In this document: piece after piece, positions 1,747 through 53,457 of the stretch
Layout: the number at the start of each line of letters is the position of its first letter
Numbering within the stretch: the first letter of the stretch is position 1
From: an uncultured Thermoprotei archaeon
Lineage (GTDB): Archaea > Thermoproteota > Thermoprotei > Thermofilales > B15-G2
Direction: 5' to 3'
Assembly (NCBI GenBank): GCA_965367815.1
Contig: CBDUKN010000004.1
Span: 32,001-96,000 of the forward strand
Length of the DNA stretch: 64,000 bases
The notes under the pieces: model-generated
Told to the model about the DNA's origin: nothing
Seen by the model: only the letters and a program-made list of their open reading frames with translations
Databases searched by the model: none
Made by a program: the position numbers and the translations under genes

Positions 1747-2196
1747 TCAGGGGTCAGGAGGCTCTACTTCGTAGAATGGTTTACCATTTATTGTCATTGG
1801 CGTGAGCCAATCTATAAACTGATCTGGATTTTCGCAGGAAACTACAAAGGTTATTGCACCTAAGGGGCTTTCTTTTTCGGGCACTGAGCAGAAAGAGAGT
1901 GACCCTACGTAAGCAGCCTGTTTATGTATGTGAAAAACTATAGTTGTTCCGATTATGCTTTTCTTGAGGTGGGAGCGAGCTGCGTCTAGTATTCGTTGCC
2001 TTCTAAGAGCATCATACAACCTGAGTAGCGATTTGTGGCTTTCTGCTCTGCATATTATTATTATTCTCCTATTTTCTTGCTTTCTTATCTCTATTTTCTC
2101 TGGAGCGAAGAAGTTTAGTATAGCTTTTTTGACTTTCTCCAAGTTCTCGGTCGGTCTTACTTCACATCTAACTTCTATTCTCACCGAAGTATTCAC
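1747..2196 (-). CDS. UPF0201/DUF54 RNA-binding protein
   Basis: VRPTE..EKV, RRQRILDAAR, HKQAA.VG, ESPLG.I, WL.P.T..GKP motifs. Confidence 0.85.
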   Translation of the reverse strand: MNTSVRIEVRCEVRPTENLEKVKKAILNFFAPEKIEIRKQENRRIIIICRAESHKSLLRLYDALRRQRILDAARSHLKKSIIGTTIVFHIHKQAAYVGSLSFCSVPEKESPLGAITFVVSCENPDQFIDWLTPMTINGKPFYEVEPPDP

Positions 2197-2746
2197 CTGC
2201 TATTTTAGTTATAAGTCTTTCACATAAAGCTTCGAACTCTGATAATGAAATTTCTTCGTTGACTATCATGAAGTCGGCCAGTGCTATAACATTCCCTATA
2301 CCCAAAGATAACTCTCTCTCGTCTCTTTCTCTAAAGTCGCTCCAGCTCCTTGGATCATCTGGCCGCCCTCTAGCTCTTAATCTAGAAAAACGGGTTTTTG
2401 GAGATGTGTGAATGGCGACAATTACTACGTCGAAGAATTTCTTGAAGTACTCAACTTCGTCTAGACTTCTTACTCCATCGACTACGATAATAGGAGACTC
2501 GCTGTAAAGCAATTTGGTTATGACGCGTCTTGCCATAATATCTTTGCCATATCGCTGCCTAAGTTCTGTAGCTATTTTGCCTAAATTTTCGGCTGATAAG
2601 TCGAGCCCTCTCTTTCTAGCTTCTTCTCTAACGACATCTCCTAGCGAAACTACAGGTATAGAATTCTTTTCAGCTACTTTAGAAAATACGCTTTTCCCTG
2701 AACCCGGAAGACCTGCAACAAGTATAAGTTTCTTTCTACGTTTCAC
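2168..2746 (-). CDS. UPF0200 nucleoside-monophosphate-kinase-like P-loop protein (dephospho-CoA kinase-like)
   Basis: GLPGSGKS Walker A, GDVVREE, DGVRS, RGRPDD, RD.REL..G; usual neighbour of DUF54. Confidence 0.85.
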   Translation of the reverse strand: MKRRKKLILVAGLPGSGKSVFSKVAEKNSIPVVSLGDVVREEARKRGLDLSAENLGKIATELRQRYGKDIMARRVITKLLYSESPIIVVDGVRSLDEVEYFKKFFDVVIVAIHTSPKTRFSRLRARGRPDDPRSWSDFRERDERELSLGIGNVIALADFMIVNEEISLSEFEALCERLITKIAGEYFGENRS

Positions 2747-2836
2747 GGCTTGAAAATATTTTTCTAAGTATTTTTGTTTACCGTTTATAAGTGCAGTGAG
2801 TATAAGTTTATTAATTTGAGTTCGTTAATGCGATAA

Positions 2837-3928
2837 ATGGCGAGAGAAGGGCTTAAAGTAGCGGTTGTCGGTACAGGGCGCTGGGGAAAAAACCATGTTA
2901 GAGTTCTCTCGAGTTTAAGAAATAAGGGAGTATGCTCTGAGCTAATAGTATGTGATGTAAATAAAAAAATTGCGAATGAAATAGCAGAAATGTATAGTGC
3001 GGACAAAATATACTATGATGTCTCTGAGCTAGTGGCTCACGAAGACTTGGACTGCGCTATAGTGGCTGTGCCAACAATATATCATCACAAAGTATCGCTT
3101 GCCTTATTAAAAAGGGCGGATGTCTTAGTAGAAAAACCTCTTGCAGCTAGCTGTGAAGAAGGTCTAGAGCTTATAAAGACGGCTAGAAAAGAAGGTAGAG
3201 TGTTTGCAGTAGGTCATGTAGAGAGATTTAATTCAGCTGTACTTGCTGTCAGAGACTATCTGCGTGAAAAAGTATTTCCCTCGAACGATGATATAGTGTT
3301 TATTTTTACTCAAAGAATAGGTCCAGGGCCTCCCGGTAAGCATACCTTAAACCTAGGTGTAGCTCATGATCTTTTGACACATGACGTAGATGTAGTAGTC
3401 TTCCTGTCAGGAAAAATACCTAGATATGTAACAGCTCGAGCGATCACAGATAACAGTGTCTATGAAAATGATATATCAGCGCTTTACGAGTTTGACAATA
3501 GTACGATATATATCGCGAGGGCGAGCTGGAGAGCTAGCTCAACGTTTAAAAAGAGAGTCTTAATGATACAAACTAAGGAGAGCGTAATAGAGTTAGACTA
3601 TATCCTCCAGAAGTATGTTATTGAGAAGGGGCTTTCTCAACACATATCTCTTGGAACATTCCAGGAAGTGATTCAAGCTTATAGATCTAAAGATACTGTT
3701 ACTCGTGAGCTCATGTTGACAGCAGAAAATGAGCCTCTCTTCGTAGAAGATCAACACTTCTTAGAGTGTGCCAAGCACCGAAGAGAACCACTGAATTCTG
3801 CGAGATGGGGATATATTGCACTTAAGTGTGTGGAGTGTGCACTTCAGTCGTCGCGTGCTGGAGAAAGATTAGAAATACTGTGGGGCGATGAAGAGAGGGC
3901 TTTAATTAATTCAAGTATAATTGAATAA
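2837..3928 (+). CDS. Gfo/Idh/MocA family oxidoreductase
   Basis: VVGTGRWG..H, VEKPLA, GHVERFN, DL..HDVD. Confidence 0.9.
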   Translation: MAREGLKVAVVGTGRWGKNHVRVLSSLRNKGVCSELIVCDVNKKIANEIAEMYSADKIYYDVSELVAHEDLDCAIVAVPTIYHHKVSLALLKRADVLVEKPLAASCEEGLELIKTARKEGRVFAVGHVERFNSAVLAVRDYLREKVFPSNDDIVFIFTQRIGPGPPGKHTLNLGVAHDLLTHDVDVVVFLSGKIPRYVTARAITDNSVYENDISALYEFDNSTIYIARASWRASSTFKKRVLMIQTKESVIELDYILQKYVIEKGLSQHISLGTFQEVIQAYRSKDTVTRELMLTAENEPLFVEDQHFLECAKHRREPLNSARWGYIALKCVECALQSSRAGERLEILWGDEERALINSSIIE

Positions 3929-46611: not shown

Positions 46612-47246
46612 AGTACTTAACTCTAGAGGAGGGGGCATTTTTAGTAAAGCTTGCGAGAAAAGCTGTAAAGGAGTATTTAGACAAAGGTATGATAATACCC
46701 CCTCCAGACGATGTCTCAGAGAGACTGAAAGAAAAAAGAGGAGTGTTTGTAACTATTGAAAAAATAGAAATAGATGAAAAGGGTGTCTGGCAGCGTAAGT
46801 TGAGAGGATGCATAGGCTTTCCGGAACCAGTATACCCCCTTGTAGAGGCTACAATACAGGCTGCTGTTGCTGCGTCGGAAGATCCTAGATTCCCGCCGCT
46901 AACTTTGAATGAATTAAGTAGAGTAGTATTTGAAGTAAGTGTACTTTCGCCACTAGAGCTTATTAAAGTAGAAAAACCTCTTGAATACCTCAAAGTAATA
47001 AAAATAGGCAGAGATGGACTTCTAGTAGAGAAAGGTATATTCAAAGGACTTCTCTTACCGCAAGTTCCTGTAGAATACGAGTGGGATGTTGAAACGTTCC
47101 TTAACTATGCGTGTATGAAAGCAGGGCTTCCTCCAGATGCCTGGCTTGACCCTGATACTAAAATATATAGGTTTACTGCACAGATTTTCTATGAGCTAGA
47201 GCCTGAAGGAAGAGTTATTGAAAGACAGTTAGAAATATCACGTTAA
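46608..47246 (+). CDS. AMMECR1-domain protein
   Basis: GVFVT, LRGCIG, DPRF.P, EVSVL, G.LLPQV, KAGL. Confidence 0.94.
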   Translation: MKYLTLEEGAFLVKLARKAVKEYLDKGMIIPPPDDVSERLKEKRGVFVTIEKIEIDEKGVWQRKLRGCIGFPEPVYPLVEATIQAAVAASEDPRFPPLTLNELSRVVFEVSVLSPLELIKVEKPLEYLKVIKIGRDGLLVEKGIFKGLLLPQVPVEYEWDVETFLNYACMKAGLPPDAWLDPDTKIYRFTAQIFYELEPEGRVIERQLEISR

Positions 47247-47984
47247 GTCGCCGCAAGTACACCATATTTCATGTAGTAGATCGTATAGCTGATCCATTCC
47301 CTCGCCTTCTTTAGCCGAGACAGCTACTATGCGAGATGCTCTACTAAGCCTTTTTACGAGCTCTGCACAGGAAGCCGCTAAGTCTGCCATAAGTCCTACT
47401 TCTTCTTTTGAAAGTTCTTGTTCTATGTTTTCTATATCGAAGACAAATTCTCTCGAAAGCAGATCAGATTTATTAATGACGAATACGCTTTCTGTCTTTA
47501 AGCGTAATTGAACTACTAGACCTAAGAGGTTTAATATAGCGTATCCTGATGCGCTTTTTACTAGAGTAGGATCGAAGACTACGACTGTGACTACTCTACC
47601 TATGTTCTTAAGCAAGTCTAGTAGAGCTGGACCAGCATCCTTAAAGACGAATAGCTCCATTTGACCTGGAGTGTCTATTAAAATAAAAAGGCTTTCAAGT
47701 TTTTCTATACGTCGTATTATCTCTTCTCTTCTCTCATACATTATGTCCATGCTTCTCAGGTAGGCTCCATTAGGTCCTAACTTTTCTTCTTTCATTATCT
47801 TGTTTATTGAAATTAATTCTCTCACATCAAAGTCAGGAGTGTAAGGTAAATACTCGCAGCCAGGATCTAAGTTTACATAGCTTACAGGGAAATCCATGAT
47901 CTTCGTCAACCATGAGCCGAAACATGCAGTTAGTGTAGATTTTCCGCTACCAGCGGGACCTACGAACACTATTATATCTTTCAT
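47238..47984 (-). CDS. GPN-loop GTPase (paralog 2)
   Basis: GPAGSGKS, NLDPG, LGPNGA, DTPGQME, C-terminal CTCGDLT. Confidence 0.93.
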   Translation of the reverse strand: MKDIIVFVGPAGSGKSTLTACFGSWLTKIMDFPVSYVNLDPGCEYLPYTPDFDVRELISINKIMKEEKLGPNGAYLRSMDIMYERREEIIRRIEKLESLFILIDTPGQMELFVFKDAGPALLDLLKNIGRVVTVVVFDPTLVKSASGYAILNLLGLVVQLRLKTESVFVINKSDLLSREFVFDIENIEQELSKEEVGLMADLAASCAELVKRLSRASRIVAVSAKEGEGMDQLYDLLHEIWCTCGDLT

Positions 47985-48058
47985 CGGCTAAGTAATGTCA
48001 GGAGGCTTACTTATTTTTAGCGCAATATCTTGATAAAGTAGACAGCAGTATTTAATAT

Positions 48059-48385
48059 GTGCATGTACTCGAGATAATTCTGCCTTACGATGTCGATCCG
48101 GAGCTCGAAGAAAAGTACCGTAGACTTAAGTATATGGTAAAAGCAGAGGTTAAGGTAGTTACTGTAAATTATAGTACATTTAAAGAATATTTAGAGTATA
48201 TTAAGGAGATGTACGGAGGACGGAGGCTTGTAGAGTATATTTATGTTGATGCAGAAGACTTACCGGTATTTATTTTAGACGGGCAGGTTATAGTCGAGGG
48301 AAATTATCCCGAAGTATATGAATTACTCGAACTTTTGCGCTATTATGGAATAAGGACGAGAAGAAAAAGACAATATGTTTTCTAG
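48059..48385 (+). CDS. Hypothetical protein, possibly thioredoxin-fold-like without CxxC
   Basis: LPVFILDG.VI.EG.YP motif; intact ORF. Confidence 0.55.
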   Translation: MHVLEIILPYDVDPELEEKYRRLKYMVKAEVKVVTVNYSTFKEYLEYIKEMYGGRRLVEYIYVDAEDLPVFILDGQVIVEGNYPEVYELLELLRYYGIRTRRKRQYVF

Positions 48386-48437
48386 AGTTTCGGTATCTGA
48401 CAAAAGCTTCTCAAATGTTCTCCGGTTCAAACCTCTT

Positions 48438-48942
48438 TTACGGCTTTCTCTCTGCAGAAACACAGTAGCAGTAGCGCCCTATTAACAGGTGAATTGGATG
48501 TAAAAAGCCTTCACGGCTACGCTTAAACCTGATGTAATCTAATTCGACTTCATCTACTTCATATTCGTAGGCAATATTTGTAGCTAGTCCCCTAAGATAC
48601 TTCCTTACTTCAGGATTGTTAGGACACAGGGCCCTTGGATGAGGAGTTCCCCTAAAATCTATTAGCCTACACTCAGGATTCTGCTCAGCGTATATTGGAT
48701 CTACTACACAGACCATATTTAGCTTATAATTGTTTTCTTTTTGTTCCACCAATATAGGAATCTGTATGGTACTCCCATTAAGCTTTCCTCTACGACAACA
48801 ATTACTGTGCTATTAATCTATGAACCGAGCACTCTACCATTCACCTTAAACTCCTTTGGTAGCCTATACTCAAGTCACTCATCGTCTTCTAAAGTAAGAA
48901 CTCAAGCCCTGCATAGATACCTAAATTAACATCAAGATTCAT
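48438..48942 (-). pseudogene. Decayed glycoside-hydrolase-like (GHL10/DUF187-type TIM barrel) gene fragment
   Basis: LCPNNPEVR.Y....A..Y.VD...LDY.RF...CYC; upstream part interrupted by stops; truncated C-terminus. Confidence 0.65.
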
Positions 48943-49067
48943 CGCCGCCCTCTAGCCCACTCCTATCGCTCTGAAAGAAGTAGTTGTGGAGAGCTATAAG
49001 GGAGGAGAATTTTGTTTTAATTGAGTCATGGAAACTAATATACTGTATGGCTATTTATGCAAACAGC

Positions 49068-49075
49068 TTATATAT
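49068..49075 (+). promoter_or_regulatory. TATA box upstream of the tnpB leader
   Basis: AAACAGC-TTATATAT about 25-30 nt before the GC-rich leader starts. Confidence 0.55.
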
Positions 49076-49097
49076 CTCTGAAACAACTATTACTTTA

Positions 49098-49206
49098 GAT
49101 GACCCACTCTACCTCTAGGGTAGAGTAGCGATGAGGCGAGAGCCCTATGGCTCAGTGAGCCCCACCCCAGGCCCACAGCTATCTAAGTGAACGACGGGGG
49201 TGTCTT
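49098..49206 (+). ncRNA. Structured 5' leader RNA of tnpB with canonical K-turn
   Basis: Hairpin ACTCTACC/GGTAGAGT 49106-49126; K-turn GGC-GA-GAGCC-ctat-GGCTC-AGT-GA-GCC 49135-49161. Confidence 0.6.
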
Positions 49207-50628
49207 ATGGGGCGGGAGGAGTTTGTTAAGATAATTAGGTCTAATGTTTTGAGAATAGAGGTAGATGAGAAAACAGAGAAGTTATTGAAGTGTCTTCAGA
49301 GAGAGTTTAGAAAGTATTTTAGGCTAGCGAATAGGTTTGTTAAACAGTATTATCAGAAAAACAGTAGGCTTCCTAGCGCAGCAAATGTTTACAGGCTTCT
49401 CAGGGAATATGGTGTATCTAGTACTGCTGCAAACGAGGTTTCGAAAAAGGTTCTGAAGCTTAGGAAAGCTACATTGAGCTTGAGAAAAGAGGGTTTAAGG
49501 CTAAGCCACCGGAGTTCAGGAATCCGCTTATAATTCTTCATAATCAGCAATATAGGGTTTATGTTGTAAAAGAAAGAGACGAGTGGATCGCTGAGAAAAT
49601 TGAAGTAAGGTTAAGTAGGAAGTGGGTTGAAGTAAGGGTTAGAGGTAAGTTACGGTAGGTTCCGAGGCTTGAGGAAGGACTAGTCTTCTATCTAATGGGA
49701 GGACTAAAGCATCCTATTATAGAGCTAAGACACCTGTTTACTGAAGACTACTTGATTTTAGGAGAAAAATGTCTTAGTAAGAATAAGGCAGAGGTTTTCC
49801 AACGAAACGGTAAATGATATTTTGCTTTTTCAGCGAAATTAAAGATTCCAGTGCTTCAGGGAAAGGGTGTAGCTGCTATAGACATTGGTGCACGAAATCT
49901 TATTGCTTTAATTGGAGTTGATAGTGAAGGCAACACTTTTTCACTATTGTTTAAGAGTGGTACTCCTAGAGCCTATTGGCTTAAGTGCGGGAAGCTTGCT
50001 AGACGGAGACAAAAAATCGCTTACAAGTATTTCTGGGATGCAACGGAGCACTCTGAAAACAATGATGAGGAGAAGGAGAAAGAGTTTTTCAGTAAATATG
50101 AATTGTATTTGAGGAAAGCTGGACGGTTTAAGAGGAAGGCTAGGGAGGTGAGGAAGAAGGCTGTAAATAGTATGTGTCGATTGATTGCAGAGTTTCTTGT
50201 AGAGAAAGGTGTTTCAACTATTTATGTAGGAAATTCAGTATGCTACTGTGTCTGTGGAGAAGACTTGGTTGAAGAGATCACTTCAAAGCCTGCTAGAGAG
50301 CTTTTAAGAAACTTTTTTGCTCCCCCTCAAATCATCAATTCTTTGAGAAGACACTGTGAGGTTAAAGGTATTCAAGTGGTTGAAGTAAGTGAGCGTGGTT
50401 CTTCGTCTCGGTGCCCGATATGTGGTCAAAGTGTTCAGCGAGTGTATAGAGGCTTAATTGTCTGCAAAGACCGTGGAAGCTTTAATGCGGACTTAGCGGC
50501 AGCCTACAATATTTTACGGAAAAATAATAGTGTAAAGCTTAGTGATAATGTCTTAAAAATTAGTTAATTACCCTAAGATATACATTTACTTAATTAAGGA
50601 ACAGAAATGGTTTGAGAAAAGTATTTAA
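49207..50628 (+). pseudogene. tnpB: TnpB (RNA-guided RuvC endonuclease) pseudogene
   Basis: AIDIG..NL, IYVG, VSERGSS.RCPICG, C, NADLAAAYNIL; frameshift near 49500, TAG 49656, TGA 49815, probable second frameshift near 50560. Confidence 0.88.
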
Positions 50629-50656
50629 ATAAACTAAAATAAATTAAATTAGTTTC

Positions 50657-50770
50657 TTTACCCCCGATAGAGAGACACCCCCCGCGGCTAGCCCCACATA
50701 GGGGGTAACCCGCCTGACCCTCCAGGTCGCAATGAAAGGCCAGCCTAGAGCCGAAAGAGGGGTCTAGAGA
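50657..50770 (+). ncRNA. Putative omegaRNA/reRNA (3' structured RNA of tnpB)
   Basis: TTACCCCC/GGGGGTAA stem 50658-50708, GCCT-GACC/GGTC-AGGC stem, terminal CTAGA...TCTAG hairpin; position typical of TnpB guides. Confidence 0.6.
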
Positions 50771-50830
50771 CAAGTATACATAGACTTTTGCGTAAAAGTA
50801 TTAAAGGAGTAGATATAGTGTATAAAGGCT

Positions 50831-51088
50831 ATGAAGGGGACAATAGTCTCCTTCAGATTAGGTCTACGAAGACAGTACCCTAATCAAGTTATCCTAGAAA
50901 TAGAAGGAATAAAAAGCTTCAGAGAGGCCAGCAAACTCATAGGGAGAAAGGTTGTTGTAGTGGTGGGTAAAGGTAAAAGAGTTATGGGGAAAATAACTAA
51001 GGTTCATGGCAAAAAAGGAAGAGTAGTTGCTCGCTTTAGAAAACCTTTACCAGGACAGGTTCTTGGAACACCCGTCGAAATACTTTAA
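50831..51088 (+). CDS. rpl35ae: 50S ribosomal protein L35Ae
   Basis: G.I.S.R.G...Q...Q, A.KLIGRKV, GKI...HG..G.V.ARF...LPGQ.LG. Confidence 0.94.
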   Translation: MKGTIVSFRLGLRRQYPNQVILEIEGIKSFREASKLIGRKVVVVVGKGKRVMGKITKVHGKKGRVVARFRKPLPGQVLGTPVEIL

Positions 51089-51139
51089 CTTTCGGAGGGA
51101 TAGCAATATATAGTTTTATTTGAGTAAAGCATTAGAAGT

Positions 51140-52921
51140 ATGAAATACTCTATTTTGGCTGAGTTTTACGAGAAAATAGAGAAGACTACTAAACGTACTG
51201 CGATGACAACTTACTTAGTAGAGTTATTTAAGAAGACTCCGCCTGAAGTAATAGACAAAGTAGTTTATCTTACTCAAGGAAAACTTTACCCTGATTTCGT
51301 GGGAGTTGAATTGGGTGTTGCCGAAAAGCTTGCGATGAGAGCTTTATCAATAGTATCGGGTGCATCTATTAAAGAAATTGAAGCGATTTACAAAAAGGAA
51401 GGCGACATAGGGCTTACAGCTGAACGTGTGCTCGCTAGGAAGAAAACAGCATCTATTCTCGATTATTTTGGAGTCACGCAAACACAAAGAGAGCTCACAG
51501 TAGACAGAGTATACTCAACTTTAGATAGAATAGCTAAGGCTAAGGGAGAAGGGTCACAAGACGTGAAAATAAACCTTTTGGCGAGTCTTCTTCGCGATGC
51601 TTCTCCTAAGGAGGCCAAATACCTTTTAAGAACTATTACTGGAAGACTTCGTTTAGGAATAGCAGACATGACAATATTAGATGCCTTAGCTATAACATTC
51701 ACAGGCTCTAAGGCGAACAGAGACATTATTGAGAGAGCATACAATGTTCGTCCAGACTTAGGCTACATAGCCAAGGTATTGGCTACAGAAGGGCTTGAAG
51801 GGGTAAAGAGAATAAAGATAACAATAGGAATACCGGTTCAGCCAATGCTCGCTGAAAGACTAAGCAACCCAGTAGAGATTTTAGAAAAACTTGGAGGTGA
51901 GTGTATAGCTGAGTACAAGTATGATGGCGAGAGAATACAGGCCCATAAAAAGGGCGATGAAGTAGTCTTGTTTAGTAGAAGGCTTGAGAATATTACGCAT
52001 CATTATCCAGATGCATGTGAACTTATTAGAAAACATATAAAAGCTAAAGAAGCTATTATTGAAGGAGAATGTGTTGCTATAAATCCTGTTTCAGGTGAAA
52101 TGCTGCCTTTCCAGGAACTCATGCATAGAAGACGAAAGTATGATATAGAGGAGGCTATGAAGAAGTATCCGATTGCACTGTTTCTCTTCGACTGTCTCTA
52201 CGTAGATGGAGAGGACTTAACATTAAAGCCTTATCCTGTGAGACGAGAATTTTTGAAGAAAATAGTTGAAGAAGGAGAAAAAATAAAGCTAGCTATCTCG
52301 AAGCATATCAAGAGTCCTAAAGAGCTAGAAGAGTTCTTTGAAGAAGCCATATCCGAAGGCTGCGAAGGAATTATGTGTAAGTCTCTCAAAGACGACTCTA
52401 TTTACCAGATGGGAGCTAGAGGCTGGCTTTGGATTAAGTTCAAGAGAGACTATCGTTGTGAAATGACAGATACCGTAGATTTAGTAGTTGTTGGAGCATT
52501 TTACGGTAAAGGAAAAAGAGCAGGAACGTATGGAGCACTGCTCATGGCCGCTTATGATCCTTCGGCAGATATGTTCAGAACAGTCTGTAAAGTAGGTAGC
52601 GGTTTTACAGACGAAGATTTAGAAAAACTACCCGAGATACTTGACCCATATAAAATACCTCATAAGCATCCCAGAGTAGATTCTAAAATAGAGGCCGATG
52701 TATGGTTCGTACCTGCAGTCGTACTGGAAATAATGGGTGCTGAAATAACTTTAAGTCCACTACATACGTGCGCTTATGGAGTTATTAAAAGTAGCGCAGG
52801 CTTAGCTATAAGATTCCCTAGATTTACTGGCAGGTATCGATTTGATAAAAAGCCTGAGCAAGCTACTACTGTTGACGAGCTAGTAGAAATGTACAGAGCG
52901 CAGCGCAAGACAGCAGCCTAA
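51140..52921 (+). CDS. lig: ATP-dependent DNA ligase
   Basis: EYKYDGER.Q.H, EGE, FD.LY, EG.M.K, W.K.K.DY, D.VDLVV.G, IRFPRF. Confidence 0.98.
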   Translation: MKYSILAEFYEKIEKTTKRTAMTTYLVELFKKTPPEVIDKVVYLTQGKLYPDFVGVELGVAEKLAMRALSIVSGASIKEIEAIYKKEGDIGLTAERVLARKKTASILDYFGVTQTQRELTVDRVYSTLDRIAKAKGEGSQDVKINLLASLLRDASPKEAKYLLRTITGRLRLGIADMTILDALAITFTGSKANRDIIERAYNVRPDLGYIAKVLATEGLEGVKRIKITIGIPVQPMLAERLSNPVEILEKLGGECIAEYKYDGERIQAHKKGDEVVLFSRRLENITHHYPDACELIRKHIKAKEAIIEGECVAINPVSGEMLPFQELMHRRRKYDIEEAMKKYPIALFLFDCLYVDGEDLTLKPYPVRREFLKKIVEEGEKIKLAISKHIKSPKELEEFFEEAISEGCEGIMCKSLKDDSIYQMGARGWLWIKFKRDYRCEMTDTVDLVVVGAFYGKGKRAGTYGALLMAAYDPSADMFRTVCKVGSGFTDEDLEKLPEILDPYKIPHKHPRVDSKIEADVWFVPAVVLEIMGAEITLSPLHTCAYGVIKSSAGLAIRFPRFTGRYRFDKKPEQATTVDELVEMYRAQRKTAA

Positions 52922-53457
52922 GTGTAACTTTTTTCCTTAGCTAACTTTTCTAAAGTCCACTTGAAAGTATTTCTTATTTCTCTTAAACGAGAATCGGTTC
53001 TGTAGTTGTAAACAATTACTTTCTTCACTAAGCCTTCTTCATCTTTTTCAATTTCGTATCTCAACACTTCATCGACAGTGAGGTCTCCTCTATCTAGAGC
53101 TTCTTCATCTTCTTTTTGCATGCCTCCAAGAATTCTTTTTATGAAGAATGTTGAGAAAGGAATATCTGTGGATTTAAATGGAACATAAGGCAGTAACTCA
53201 ACTTTATCCTTATAGATAGTTATTCTCCCTAATTCTCTTCCTTTTTTATCTCTAATAAAGTATTCTCTTAATGGCTTTTCTTCAACGCTTACTTTTGTTT
53301 TTATTAAATCAGCAGCAGATTTGAAACTTTTTTCGCTTAATGTTCTATCTATTAATTTTAATATTAACTGAAATAGCTCTAGTTCAGTCTTAAGTTCTTC
53401 TATTCTTTTCTCTATAATTTTTCTGATTTCAACTAGCTGCTTTATTTCCTCATCCAC
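52918..53457 (-). CDS. Hypothetical protein with N-terminal coiled coil and SFxxA motif
   Basis: Intact ORF convergent with lig; SFKSAADL; PF..FF..RIL..M, RLREI....KWTLEK. Confidence 0.7.
   Translation of the reverse strand: MDEEIKQLVEIRKIIEKRIEELKTELELFQLILKLIDRTLSEKSFKSAADLIKTKVSVEEKPLREYFIRDKKGRELGRITIYKDKVELLPYVPFKSTDIPFSTFFIKRILGGMQKEDEEALDRGDLTVDEVLRYEIEKDEEGLVKKVIVYNYRTDSRLREIRNTFKWTLEKLAKEKSYT

Follow-up and report, generated by a model that had tools for sequence, protein, structure and literature searches.

Here we describe a decayed TnpB element in a 64,000-nucleotide stretch (hereafter the window) of contig CBDUKN010000004.1, which belongs to an uncultured Thermoprotei archaeon; its tnpB pseudogene lies between two GC-rich blocks that carry complementary motifs. 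Comparison with relatives of the element identifies the 5' block as what is very probably the 5' module of a leader RNA, conserved and structured on the plus strand, that lies downstream of a TATA-like box, and the 3' block, with similar strength, as the predicted omegaRNA scaffold at the right end of the element. The initial annotation of this locus had read the two blocks as possible halves of a bipartite guide RNA, or else as a 3' RNA that occludes the Shine-Dalgarno sequence (SD) of tnpB. We hold, with moderate confidence, to a different joint explanation, in which the window contains a decayed and internally deleted TnpB copy, its present arrangement arose by that deletion, intact copies combine a structured leader and a scaffold with a local hairpin over the start codon, and leader and omegaRNA would engage in regulatory pairing. 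Within it, we are confident of the identity of the blocks, of the deletion origin of the window form and, for intact copies, of a start codon hidden in a local hairpin; that the leader acts as a regulatory pairing partner of the omegaRNA or 3' untranslated region (UTR), with the start hairpin limiting translation, is a more tentative part that we place somewhat short of probable.

Complementary motifs on either side of tnpB

The motif GGGGGTGTCT lies at 49196-49205 on the plus strand and its exact reverse complement at 50673-50682, across tnpB, as had been noted before; no other exact copies of either exist in the window, and the extension of the pairing through TAT/ATA and GGGG/CCCC is confirmed in the sequence. 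Allowing up to one mismatch to GGGGGTGTCT yields 3 matches in the window against 1.22 expected, a count reached in 11 of 100 shuffles. The duplex of the two motifs has an energy of -30.2 kcal/mol (RNAduplex), while the whole-block value of -83.1 kcal/mol includes very large loops and is not relied on. A Watson-Crick match of at least 10 nt arose in 1.9% of 1000 dinucleotide-preserving shuffles of both blocks, in which the longest match averaged 7.0 nt and never exceeded 11. The earlier description of the blocks as GC-rich and structured stands in its first part from the window itself (GC of 0.60 at 49100-49199 and 50650-50749, against 0.19-0.49 in between), and in its second part through relatives only: single-sequence folds of both blocks are about as stable as those of shuffles (z of -0.38 and -0.68), so that it is covariation in relatives that marks the blocks as structured RNAs, as the window folds alone do not show it.

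Two blocks rich in G/C runs, a match of such length in 1.9% of shuffles and unremarkable single-sequence folds are also what a meaningless coincidence of G/C runs would produce. Both motifs are, however, kept in every copy that has the relevant region, with the sole exception of a right end on contig C5 of the same genome that lacks the 3' motif, and we regard coincidence as almost negligible. The complementarity between leader and scaffold is a property of the family and not of chance, which upholds the more general part of the original proposal; what did not survive is the partner assigned to the 3' block, as the motif concerned is one within the leader (m1, below) rather than the SD and start codon.

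Leader RNA and right-end scaffold in relatives

Full-length relatives encode a multi-helix leader RNA of ~310 nt, followed by an AT-rich stretch and then by a hairpin of ~30 bp in which the SD and the start codon are buried. Across six long leaders we count 143 pairs; 96.6% of the cells are paired, and both sides have changed in 27 of the pairs, compared with 0-6 in slid controls; the observed number was reached in 0 of 500 shuffles. One predicted long-range helix, between leader columns 40-46 and 472-478, has no compensatory change and was removed before this count. The leader consensus is more stable on the plus strand (-183.6 kcal/mol) than on the minus strand (-169.7 kcal/mol). The part of the leader retained in the window, its 5' module or unit B, corresponds to helices 1-3 of the long leaders; it has 34 pairs in an alignment of 7 sequences, 3 of them with compensatory changes, and the internal loop of its second hairpin looks like a kink-turn (k-turn), judged by the consensus of that motif. 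The hairpin directly after the opening GAUGA is kept, with unrelated stems, in the leaders of the copies C21a and C27 and of a second TnpB family.

Leaders come in three lengths. The long form, ~515-540 nt from GATGA to the start codon, is found in C8, L036/L037, L039/L041, L040, L043 and L042 (whose contig starts inside the leader), and C27 shares this layout but differs in its 5' module. The short form, ~190 nt, is found in C7/L044, L045 and L046, and C21a has the short layout with, again, a different 5' module; these short forms are deletions between two copies of a CCCCCGCTACC...GGAGCGATGGGGG hairpin. The shortest form, ~130 nt, is that of the window copy, and C26, whose leader is cut by the contig end, has the same junction. 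Of 8 long-form rows, 6 have an open reading frame (in two of the six it stays open up to the contig end), and among short or shortest rows the count is 2 of 7; these rows are related to one another, and the figures are only a hint that the long leader is the working form.

Unit B recurs in 8 of 11 metagenome loci, and a ninth, L042, starts inside it. Upstream of tnpB on contigs C7 and C8, it is 95.6-97.4% identical to the window (49025-49205), though the tnpB genes themselves are only ~70% identical, a disparity that implies recent recombination or copy-correction between loci, probably limited to the leader. A covariance model of unit B finds three copies in the window's own genome and, among 120 genomes of the class, one weak match in G058, from another family of the class (E 2.3e-4, with rough calibration). 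That locus, L055 (G058:C15), has a GAUGA-hairpin-GAUGA module at 1501-1597, with a run of GGTGTACCA-like repeats just upstream of it and a 396-aa open reading frame (ORF; 1823-3013) containing LAGLLDSDG, a LAGLIDADG-like motif, downstream. A further hairpin-like module, GGGTTCTATTGCTTCTGAGAC...AGAAGCAATAGGGC, lies between unit A (a gene fragment described below) and unit B on C7 and C8 (L016, L015); it is also present in L044, L045 and L046 (~865-960 nt into L045), shows compensatory stem changes and is missing from the window copy.

At the other end of the element, 12 distinct right-end copies align over 101-119 nt with 20 pairs, 4 of which have compensatory changes. They begin with m4, made up of a small hairpin (CCC GAUA GGG) and the single-stranded stretch AGACACCCC, which is unpaired in the consensus of these 12 sequences; a length-variable hairpin, the central hairpin IR-R, a covarying hairpin (AU:7/GC:5, CG:6/GC:4) and a conserved GAAAGAGGGGUC tail follow in that order. 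Homology between copies ends at GGGGTC plus a few nucleotides, from which point the flanks differ. A pairing of m4 with the scaffold 3' GGGGTC(T) was rejected as part of the fold: it is possible in every copy and has no compensatory change. The 3' end of tnpB and the spacer that follows it are AT-rich (GC 0.19-0.25), and the ribosomal protein gene L35Ae begins at 50831, 61 nt past the right end, with no repeat-spacer array.

Searches against Rfam at E<=1, using the window at 47000-53000 and the relatives L037, L039, L040, L044 and L015, gave no match for either leader or scaffold; the start hairpin alone drew matches, to microRNA-precursor families and far below their gathering scores. We also discarded the idea that the two blocks are one RNA gene split by an insertion, as there are no truncated Rfam matches and both blocks are repeated along with tnpB.

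Compared with these relatives, the window copy is damaged in both RNAs. Its leader is truncated, and two conserved helices of its right-end RNA are affected: the first hairpin has GGG>GAG, and the covarying hairpin is destroyed by a 5-nt deletion. This RNA also has an insertion of 5 nt. This contradicts the impression that the RNA blocks are better preserved than the ORF, and with the blocks themselves damaged it is unlikely that they still serve a TnpB in trans.

Origin of the window arrangement

In long leaders the G-strand motif is present twice, as m1 at the end of unit B and as m3 at the SD and start codon, and each copy has its own partner nearby. The first, m1 (GGGGUGUCUCCCCGGGA), pairs with m2 (UCCCGCGGGAGACAC) ~170 nt downstream to form helix 4, in which 6 of 16 pairs have a compensatory change. 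The second, m3, is the 3' arm of the local ~30-bp start hairpin (helices 16 and 17), in which 5 of 30 pairs have a compensatory change among the six long forms. Indeed, where m3 changes from UGUCUG to UGUUCU, it is the local upstream arm that compensates (CAGGCA to AGGGCA), while the 3' block does not. The start hairpin is also the stronger fold, at -38.8 to -51.3 kcal/mol versus -17.0 to -30.7 kcal/mol for m3:m4. Furthermore, cognate and non-cognate m3:m4 duplexes are equal over 11 copies (-24.95 versus -25.07 kcal/mol). Because cognate pairs do no better than non-cognate ones, and because the compensation lies in the local arm, the pairing of SD and start codon with the 3' block, as first suggested from the window, has no support from covariation.

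The window copy and C26 share a junction at which the unit B sequence just before m1 runs directly into m3 and the start codon, and m2, the local hairpin arm and everything else between m1 and m3 are deleted in both. The alignment points clearly to a deletion between m1 and m3 that created the window arrangement and left m4 as the only complement of the fused motif; the overlap with the SD, on which the idea of a translational block by the 3' RNA had been built, is a product of that deletion.

Such a block could still operate in the shortest forms, with the 5' end of the omegaRNA repressing translation of tnpB either in trans or by fold-back of the mRNA. Both the window copy and C26 have lost the local hairpin arm, their duplexes with m4 (-30.2 and -29.1 kcal/mol) cover the SD and the start codon, and C26 retains an intact 469-aa ORF. 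Against this, the arrangement is confined to deletion derivatives, m3 and m4 do not covary, the local hairpin of the long forms is far stronger, and the window copy is unable to make TnpB; we therefore consider SD occlusion by the 3' RNA very improbable.

Leader-scaffold complementarity across the family

The match between m1 and m4 extends over 12+4 bp. Wherever a copy has both motifs (8 of 8), its energy lies between -27.6 and -38.4 kcal/mol, which makes it stronger than m1:m2 (-25.0 to -31.3 kcal/mol) as well as m3:m4; in C8 it spans 35-40 aligned columns. In L040, m1 is shortened (GUGUUCCC), with a matching change in both its m2 and its m4: GTGTTCCC in m1 and GGGAACAC in m4 of L040 replace the GTGTCTCCC and GGGAGACAC of the other copies, so that 14 of 14 positions match in L040 as in C8. 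Among the one-sided m1:m4 transitions, 4 of 5 give a G.U pair on the plus strand, a proportion that is not significant.

A second stretch of complementarity joins the leader hairpin IR-L to the scaffold hairpin IR-R, of which it is the reverse complement at 22/22 positions in L037, 20/20 in L039, 19/19 in L040 and 14/15 in C8. These are all four of the long forms that have a right end, and the counts are a measure of complementarity at the level of sequence.

The same layout occurs outside the family. A second TnpB family, at C21:39895-41830 (L053), has a 455-aa open frame with a TNB domain and the same long-leader arrangement; its leader contains GAUGA plus hairpin and, twice, the shared CCCCCGCTACC hairpin, and its counterparts of IR-L and IR-R, in the same positions but of different sequence, are complementary at 19/19. 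In C21a, a member of the first family, the 5' module is that of the second, from which it follows that leader modules have been exchanged between families.

Weighing RNA-level and DNA-level explanations

We favor regulatory RNA-RNA pairing on several grounds: a TATA-like box precedes the leader, which is structured as a plus-strand RNA; the scaffold begins with m4 in an unpaired state; and, besides one compensatory change, most one-sided changes are wobble-compatible. In intact elements, the leader would pair, as a cis-encoded partner RNA, with the omegaRNA or the 3' UTR, and this pairing would regulate the availability of guide RNA or the expression of tnpB; the start hairpin would limit translation in an IS200-like manner.

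Several observations weigh against this explanation. The promoters, the RNA ends and the leader as a separate RNA are all elements that we infer. Covariation of m1 with m4 amounts to one event (L040), and because m2 and m4 are alike, copy-correction could mimic it; cognate m1:m4 duplexes are barely better than non-cognate ones (-35.2 versus -33.7 kcal/mol), and two m4 changes in L046/L047 break m1:m4 pairs. C8 and L043 have uncompensated IR-L:IR-R mismatches, and m1:m4 and IR-L:IR-R are not collinear as a single antiparallel duplex. In C5, whose frame stays open as far as the contig reaches, m4 is missing from the right end. C26 and C21a keep intact ORFs without m2 and IR-L, meaning that the full leader is not needed for survival of the ORF. 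Finally, the covariation tests draw on a small sample of ~10 distinct full copies, which are related and recombine frequently.

A serious rival, although in our view an unlikely one, is that the complementarity acts on DNA or is a relic, consisting of inverted repeats of the element ends, recombinase sites or the remnant of an inverted partial duplication of the right end, without any RNA-RNA role. Indeed, the order of IR-L (outer) and m3 (inner) on the left mirrors that of m4 (inner) and IR-R (outer) on the right, as in transposon ends, and in L036 and L042 IR-L runs on into the reverse complement of the scaffold ACTAG...GGTAA. Frequent recombination, as evident in leader modules of 95.6-97.4% identity beside tnpB genes of ~70% and in the second-family 5' module of C21a, is in keeping with activity on DNA, and a family-specific binding site would equally give a complementarity that differs between families. 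On the other hand, no Y1 transposase was found in the window's own genome, which is 99.4% complete, nor was another candidate enzyme identified there. The best match to m4 is m1 (over those 35-40 columns in C8), which stands outside the mirrored arrangement; plus-strand G.U pairs are many in the leader helices and, though not significantly so, predominate among the one-sided m1:m4 transitions; and copy-correction would work poorly on 20-nt repeats 1.7 kb apart. We rejected a simple inverted duplication of the entire right end, as there are only two short inverted matches and their order is unlike that of one inverted copy.

The main idea of the initial annotation, moved to another motif, would have the leader pair through m1 and IR-L with the right-end RNA inside the active TnpB ribonucleoprotein (RNP), as a tracrRNA-like half of a bipartite guide. 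Two separate complementarities, one in 8 of 8 copies and the other in 4 of 4 long forms with a right end, speak for such a guide, as do an m4 that is unpaired at the extreme 5' end of the scaffold and a leader with its own TATA-like box. Characterized omegaRNAs have a 5' half embedded in the ORF, and with a tnpB 3' end and spacer as AT-rich as these, that half seems to be missing here. The right-end RNA alone, however, is ~105-120 nt long with four conserved helices, and such a length is within the range of self-sufficient scaffolds; because it already looks complete, a required two-part guide becomes less likely. C26 and C21a, with intact ORFs, lack IR-L, while the open-frame C5 lacks m4, and in long forms m1 is taken by m2 in cis. 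TnpB guide RNAs are also placed downstream of the gene in the part of PMC10691335 that concerns us. A broader version, a TnpB lineage with two RNAs in which a promoter-bearing, k-turn-containing leader would pair through m1 and IR-L with the right-end RNA either as part of the guide RNP or as an anti-guide regulator, strikes us as improbable, and the strictly bipartite guide as slightly more so.

Family, distribution and state of the tnpB gene

The assignment of the ORF to tnpB is borne out by Pfam. The window fragment at 49851-50567 matches Cas12f1-like_TNB (3.2e-11) and OrfB_IS605 (7e-8; 33.2 bits, above the 30.5 cut-off), and the intact paralogue P0001 (469 aa) matches TNB at 1.2e-13 and OrfB_IS605 at 5.4e-5 (23.8 bits, below the 30.5 cut-off). 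In a weak alignment to Cas12f (9nzq, E 0.009), REDL falls on MEDL and NAD on NAD, and the first aspartate (VDIG) lies in an insignificant stretch only. The presence of at least three lesions in the ORF likewise holds (Table 1), and with its frameshifts and stops the window copy cannot make TnpB. It is a dead, internally deleted relic of a TnpB element, and nothing in it is likely to be functional.

Contigs C8, C7, C26, C21 (two), C5, C27 and C9 of the window's own genome carry further copies of the family, with tnpB parts ~70% identical. When metagenomes were scanned with four aligned paralogues, 11 loci emerged; the genome_contigs set has one locus of the family, in a metagenome-assembled genome, although scanning that set with a single TnpB protein gave no match, and no family member was found in viral_contigs. 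Among 41 genomes (the window's own and 40 relatives; E<=1e-20), only G001, of the same genus, matched beyond the window's own, and among 120 genomes of the class (E<=1e-15), 4 matched, namely the window's own, G001 and two weak ones; none of 401 genomes sampled from the phylum matched beyond the window's own at E<=1e-25. The family is found almost only in this genus. The Y1 HUH transposase TnpA (PF01797) has 0 matches in the window's own genome, in a search whose control was positive in 6 of 14 known genomes.

Inserted block and feature coordinates

The element and its immediate surroundings lie within a block that relatives lack (Table 1). A contig found in run X4, ~90% identical to the window, joins position 48380 to 50763 and so skips 2382 nt, with a 7-nt ambiguity that stems from TCTAGAG at both borders; as this empty-site joint falls at 50762-50769, the right border of the insertion coincides with the end of the right-end RNA. 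In G001, the GTPase gene, a small ORF and L35Ae are adjacent and the block is missing. Other copies in the same genome have no flanking direct repeat, and direct repeats were dropped as a general feature of the element, being seen at the window copy only.

Table 1. Features of the inserted block and of the element in the window, with positions counted from its first nucleotide
Position	Strand	Feature	Basis
48381..50769		Block missing from the empty-site contig of a ~90% identical relative and from G001; 7-nt direct repeat TCTAGAG at 48381-48387 and 50763-50769	
48438..48809	-	DUF4015-like gene fragment; E 4.6e-4, below the curated cut-off; ~80% identical to C1:175831-176119	
48719..48936	-	Unit A, 3' part of a small-protein gene family; repeats on contigs C2, C5, C7, C8, C15, C25	
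49068..49075	+	TATA-like box TTATATAT, ~26 nt 5' of the leader-opening GATGA; kept in 12/12 aligned rows; putative leader promoter	
49095..49195	+	Leader 5' module, unit B: H1 (49104-49114 with 49118-49128), hairpin with k-turn-like internal loop (49133-49163); leader truncated thereafter	
49196..49212	+	G-strand motif GGGGGTGTCT, then ATG start codon (49207-49209) and GGGG; likely SD; fusion of leader motif m1 with start motif m3	
49207..50622	+	tnpB pseudogene; 2 frameshifts (near 49455-49488 and near 50557), 3 in-frame stops, second zinc-ribbon CxxC lost	tblastn with intact paralogue P0001
50660..50769	+	Right-end RNA, predicted omegaRNA scaffold; starts with m4 (50662-50682, CCCC GATAGAG AGACACCCCC); central hairpin IR-R at 50705-50726	
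50770..50790	+	Flank directly 3' of the right end, differs between copies; predicted guide segment	Analogy with characterized TnpB elements

The block seems to carry a piece of another locus, the DUF4015-like fragment. Unit A encodes what in a 145-aa open frame at C2:142957-143391, which has no Pfam family, is the C-terminus. In the window and on C7 and C8 it directly precedes the TnpB leaders, and on C15 it lies upstream of a second-family tnpB.

Relation to known systems and significance

The elements resemble IS200/IS605-type TnpB-omegaRNA systems (ISDra2) in their OrfB_IS605 and zinc-ribbon TNB domains, their structured right-end RNA, the variable flank after the scaffold and the many decayed copies without a transposase. 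They differ in that Y1 TnpA was not found in the genome, in that the scaffold follows an AT-rich spacer rather than overlapping the 3' end of the ORF, and in the structured leader of 130-520 nt that lies upstream and is complementary to the scaffold. A literature search turned up no paper that describes a leader RNA upstream of tnpB that pairs with omegaRNA, and supplements may bear on the point.

Two kinds of element with a large structured RNA upstream of the nuclease gene invite comparison. In IStrons, a group I intron is fused 5' of an IS605 or IS607 tnpB (PMC4227781; 10.1101/2023.11.20.567912; PMC13521648); as far as the cited passages go, this is the closest analogue in layout, since an upstream RNA in the same element must interact with a right end that overlaps the guide RNA. 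The host here is archaeal, however, splicing is not evidenced, and the group I intron model (Intron_gpI) has no match at E<=1 in the window at 47000-53000 or in the five relatives searched. The omegaRNA of IscB/IsrB (HEARO) is encoded upstream of the nuclease gene, as against TnpB guide RNAs downstream, in the account given in the relevant passage of PMC10691335; to that extent it is likewise a large structured RNA upstream of an RNA-guided nuclease gene in a mobile element, but the nuclease family is a different one, the guide-like variable flank here is at the 3' end and HEARO has no Rfam match in the window region or the five relatives.

The long-form relatives, with their covarying ~30-bp local hairpin over SD and start codon, also recall IS200, in which a stem-loop in the tnpA 5' UTR hides the SD; unlike in IS200, the gene is tnpB rather than tnpA, and the upstream hairpin arm is deleted in the window copy. 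Archaeal bulge-helix-bulge structures have two 3-nt bulges on opposite strands with a 4-bp helix between them. Splicing at such a structure was considered and rejected, as m1:m4 has one 3-nt bulge by a 4-bp helix, m3:m4 a 3x7 internal loop and IR-L:IR-R an unbroken duplex.

In type V CRISPR systems (Cas12f and others), a separately encoded tracrRNA near the nuclease gene complements the guide-bearing crRNA in two stretches. The leader described here, as known from sequence alone, also complements a guide-bearing RNA in two stretches, with the guide predicted at the 3' end of the latter; in contrast to tracrRNA:crRNA, there is no repeat-spacer array, with L35Ae so close to the right end, and the guide-bearing RNA still has its full scaffold.

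As a dead relic, the window copy is of interest only as a pointer to its family. Should the repeats act on DNA only, they would point to an unrecognized mobilization of TnpB elements that lack TnpA. Cas12 descends from TnpB, which is also a compact nuclease for genome editing and whose guide has been described as a single right-end RNA. If our explanation is correct, a leader RNA with two family-specific complementarities to the scaffold, in two TnpB families within one archaeal genus, would add a regulatory or structural layer to this system and bear on the origin of tracrRNA; a two-RNA TnpB, if it exists, would stand as a natural intermediate, with single omegaRNAs on one side and type V CRISPR tracrRNA:crRNA pairs on the other.

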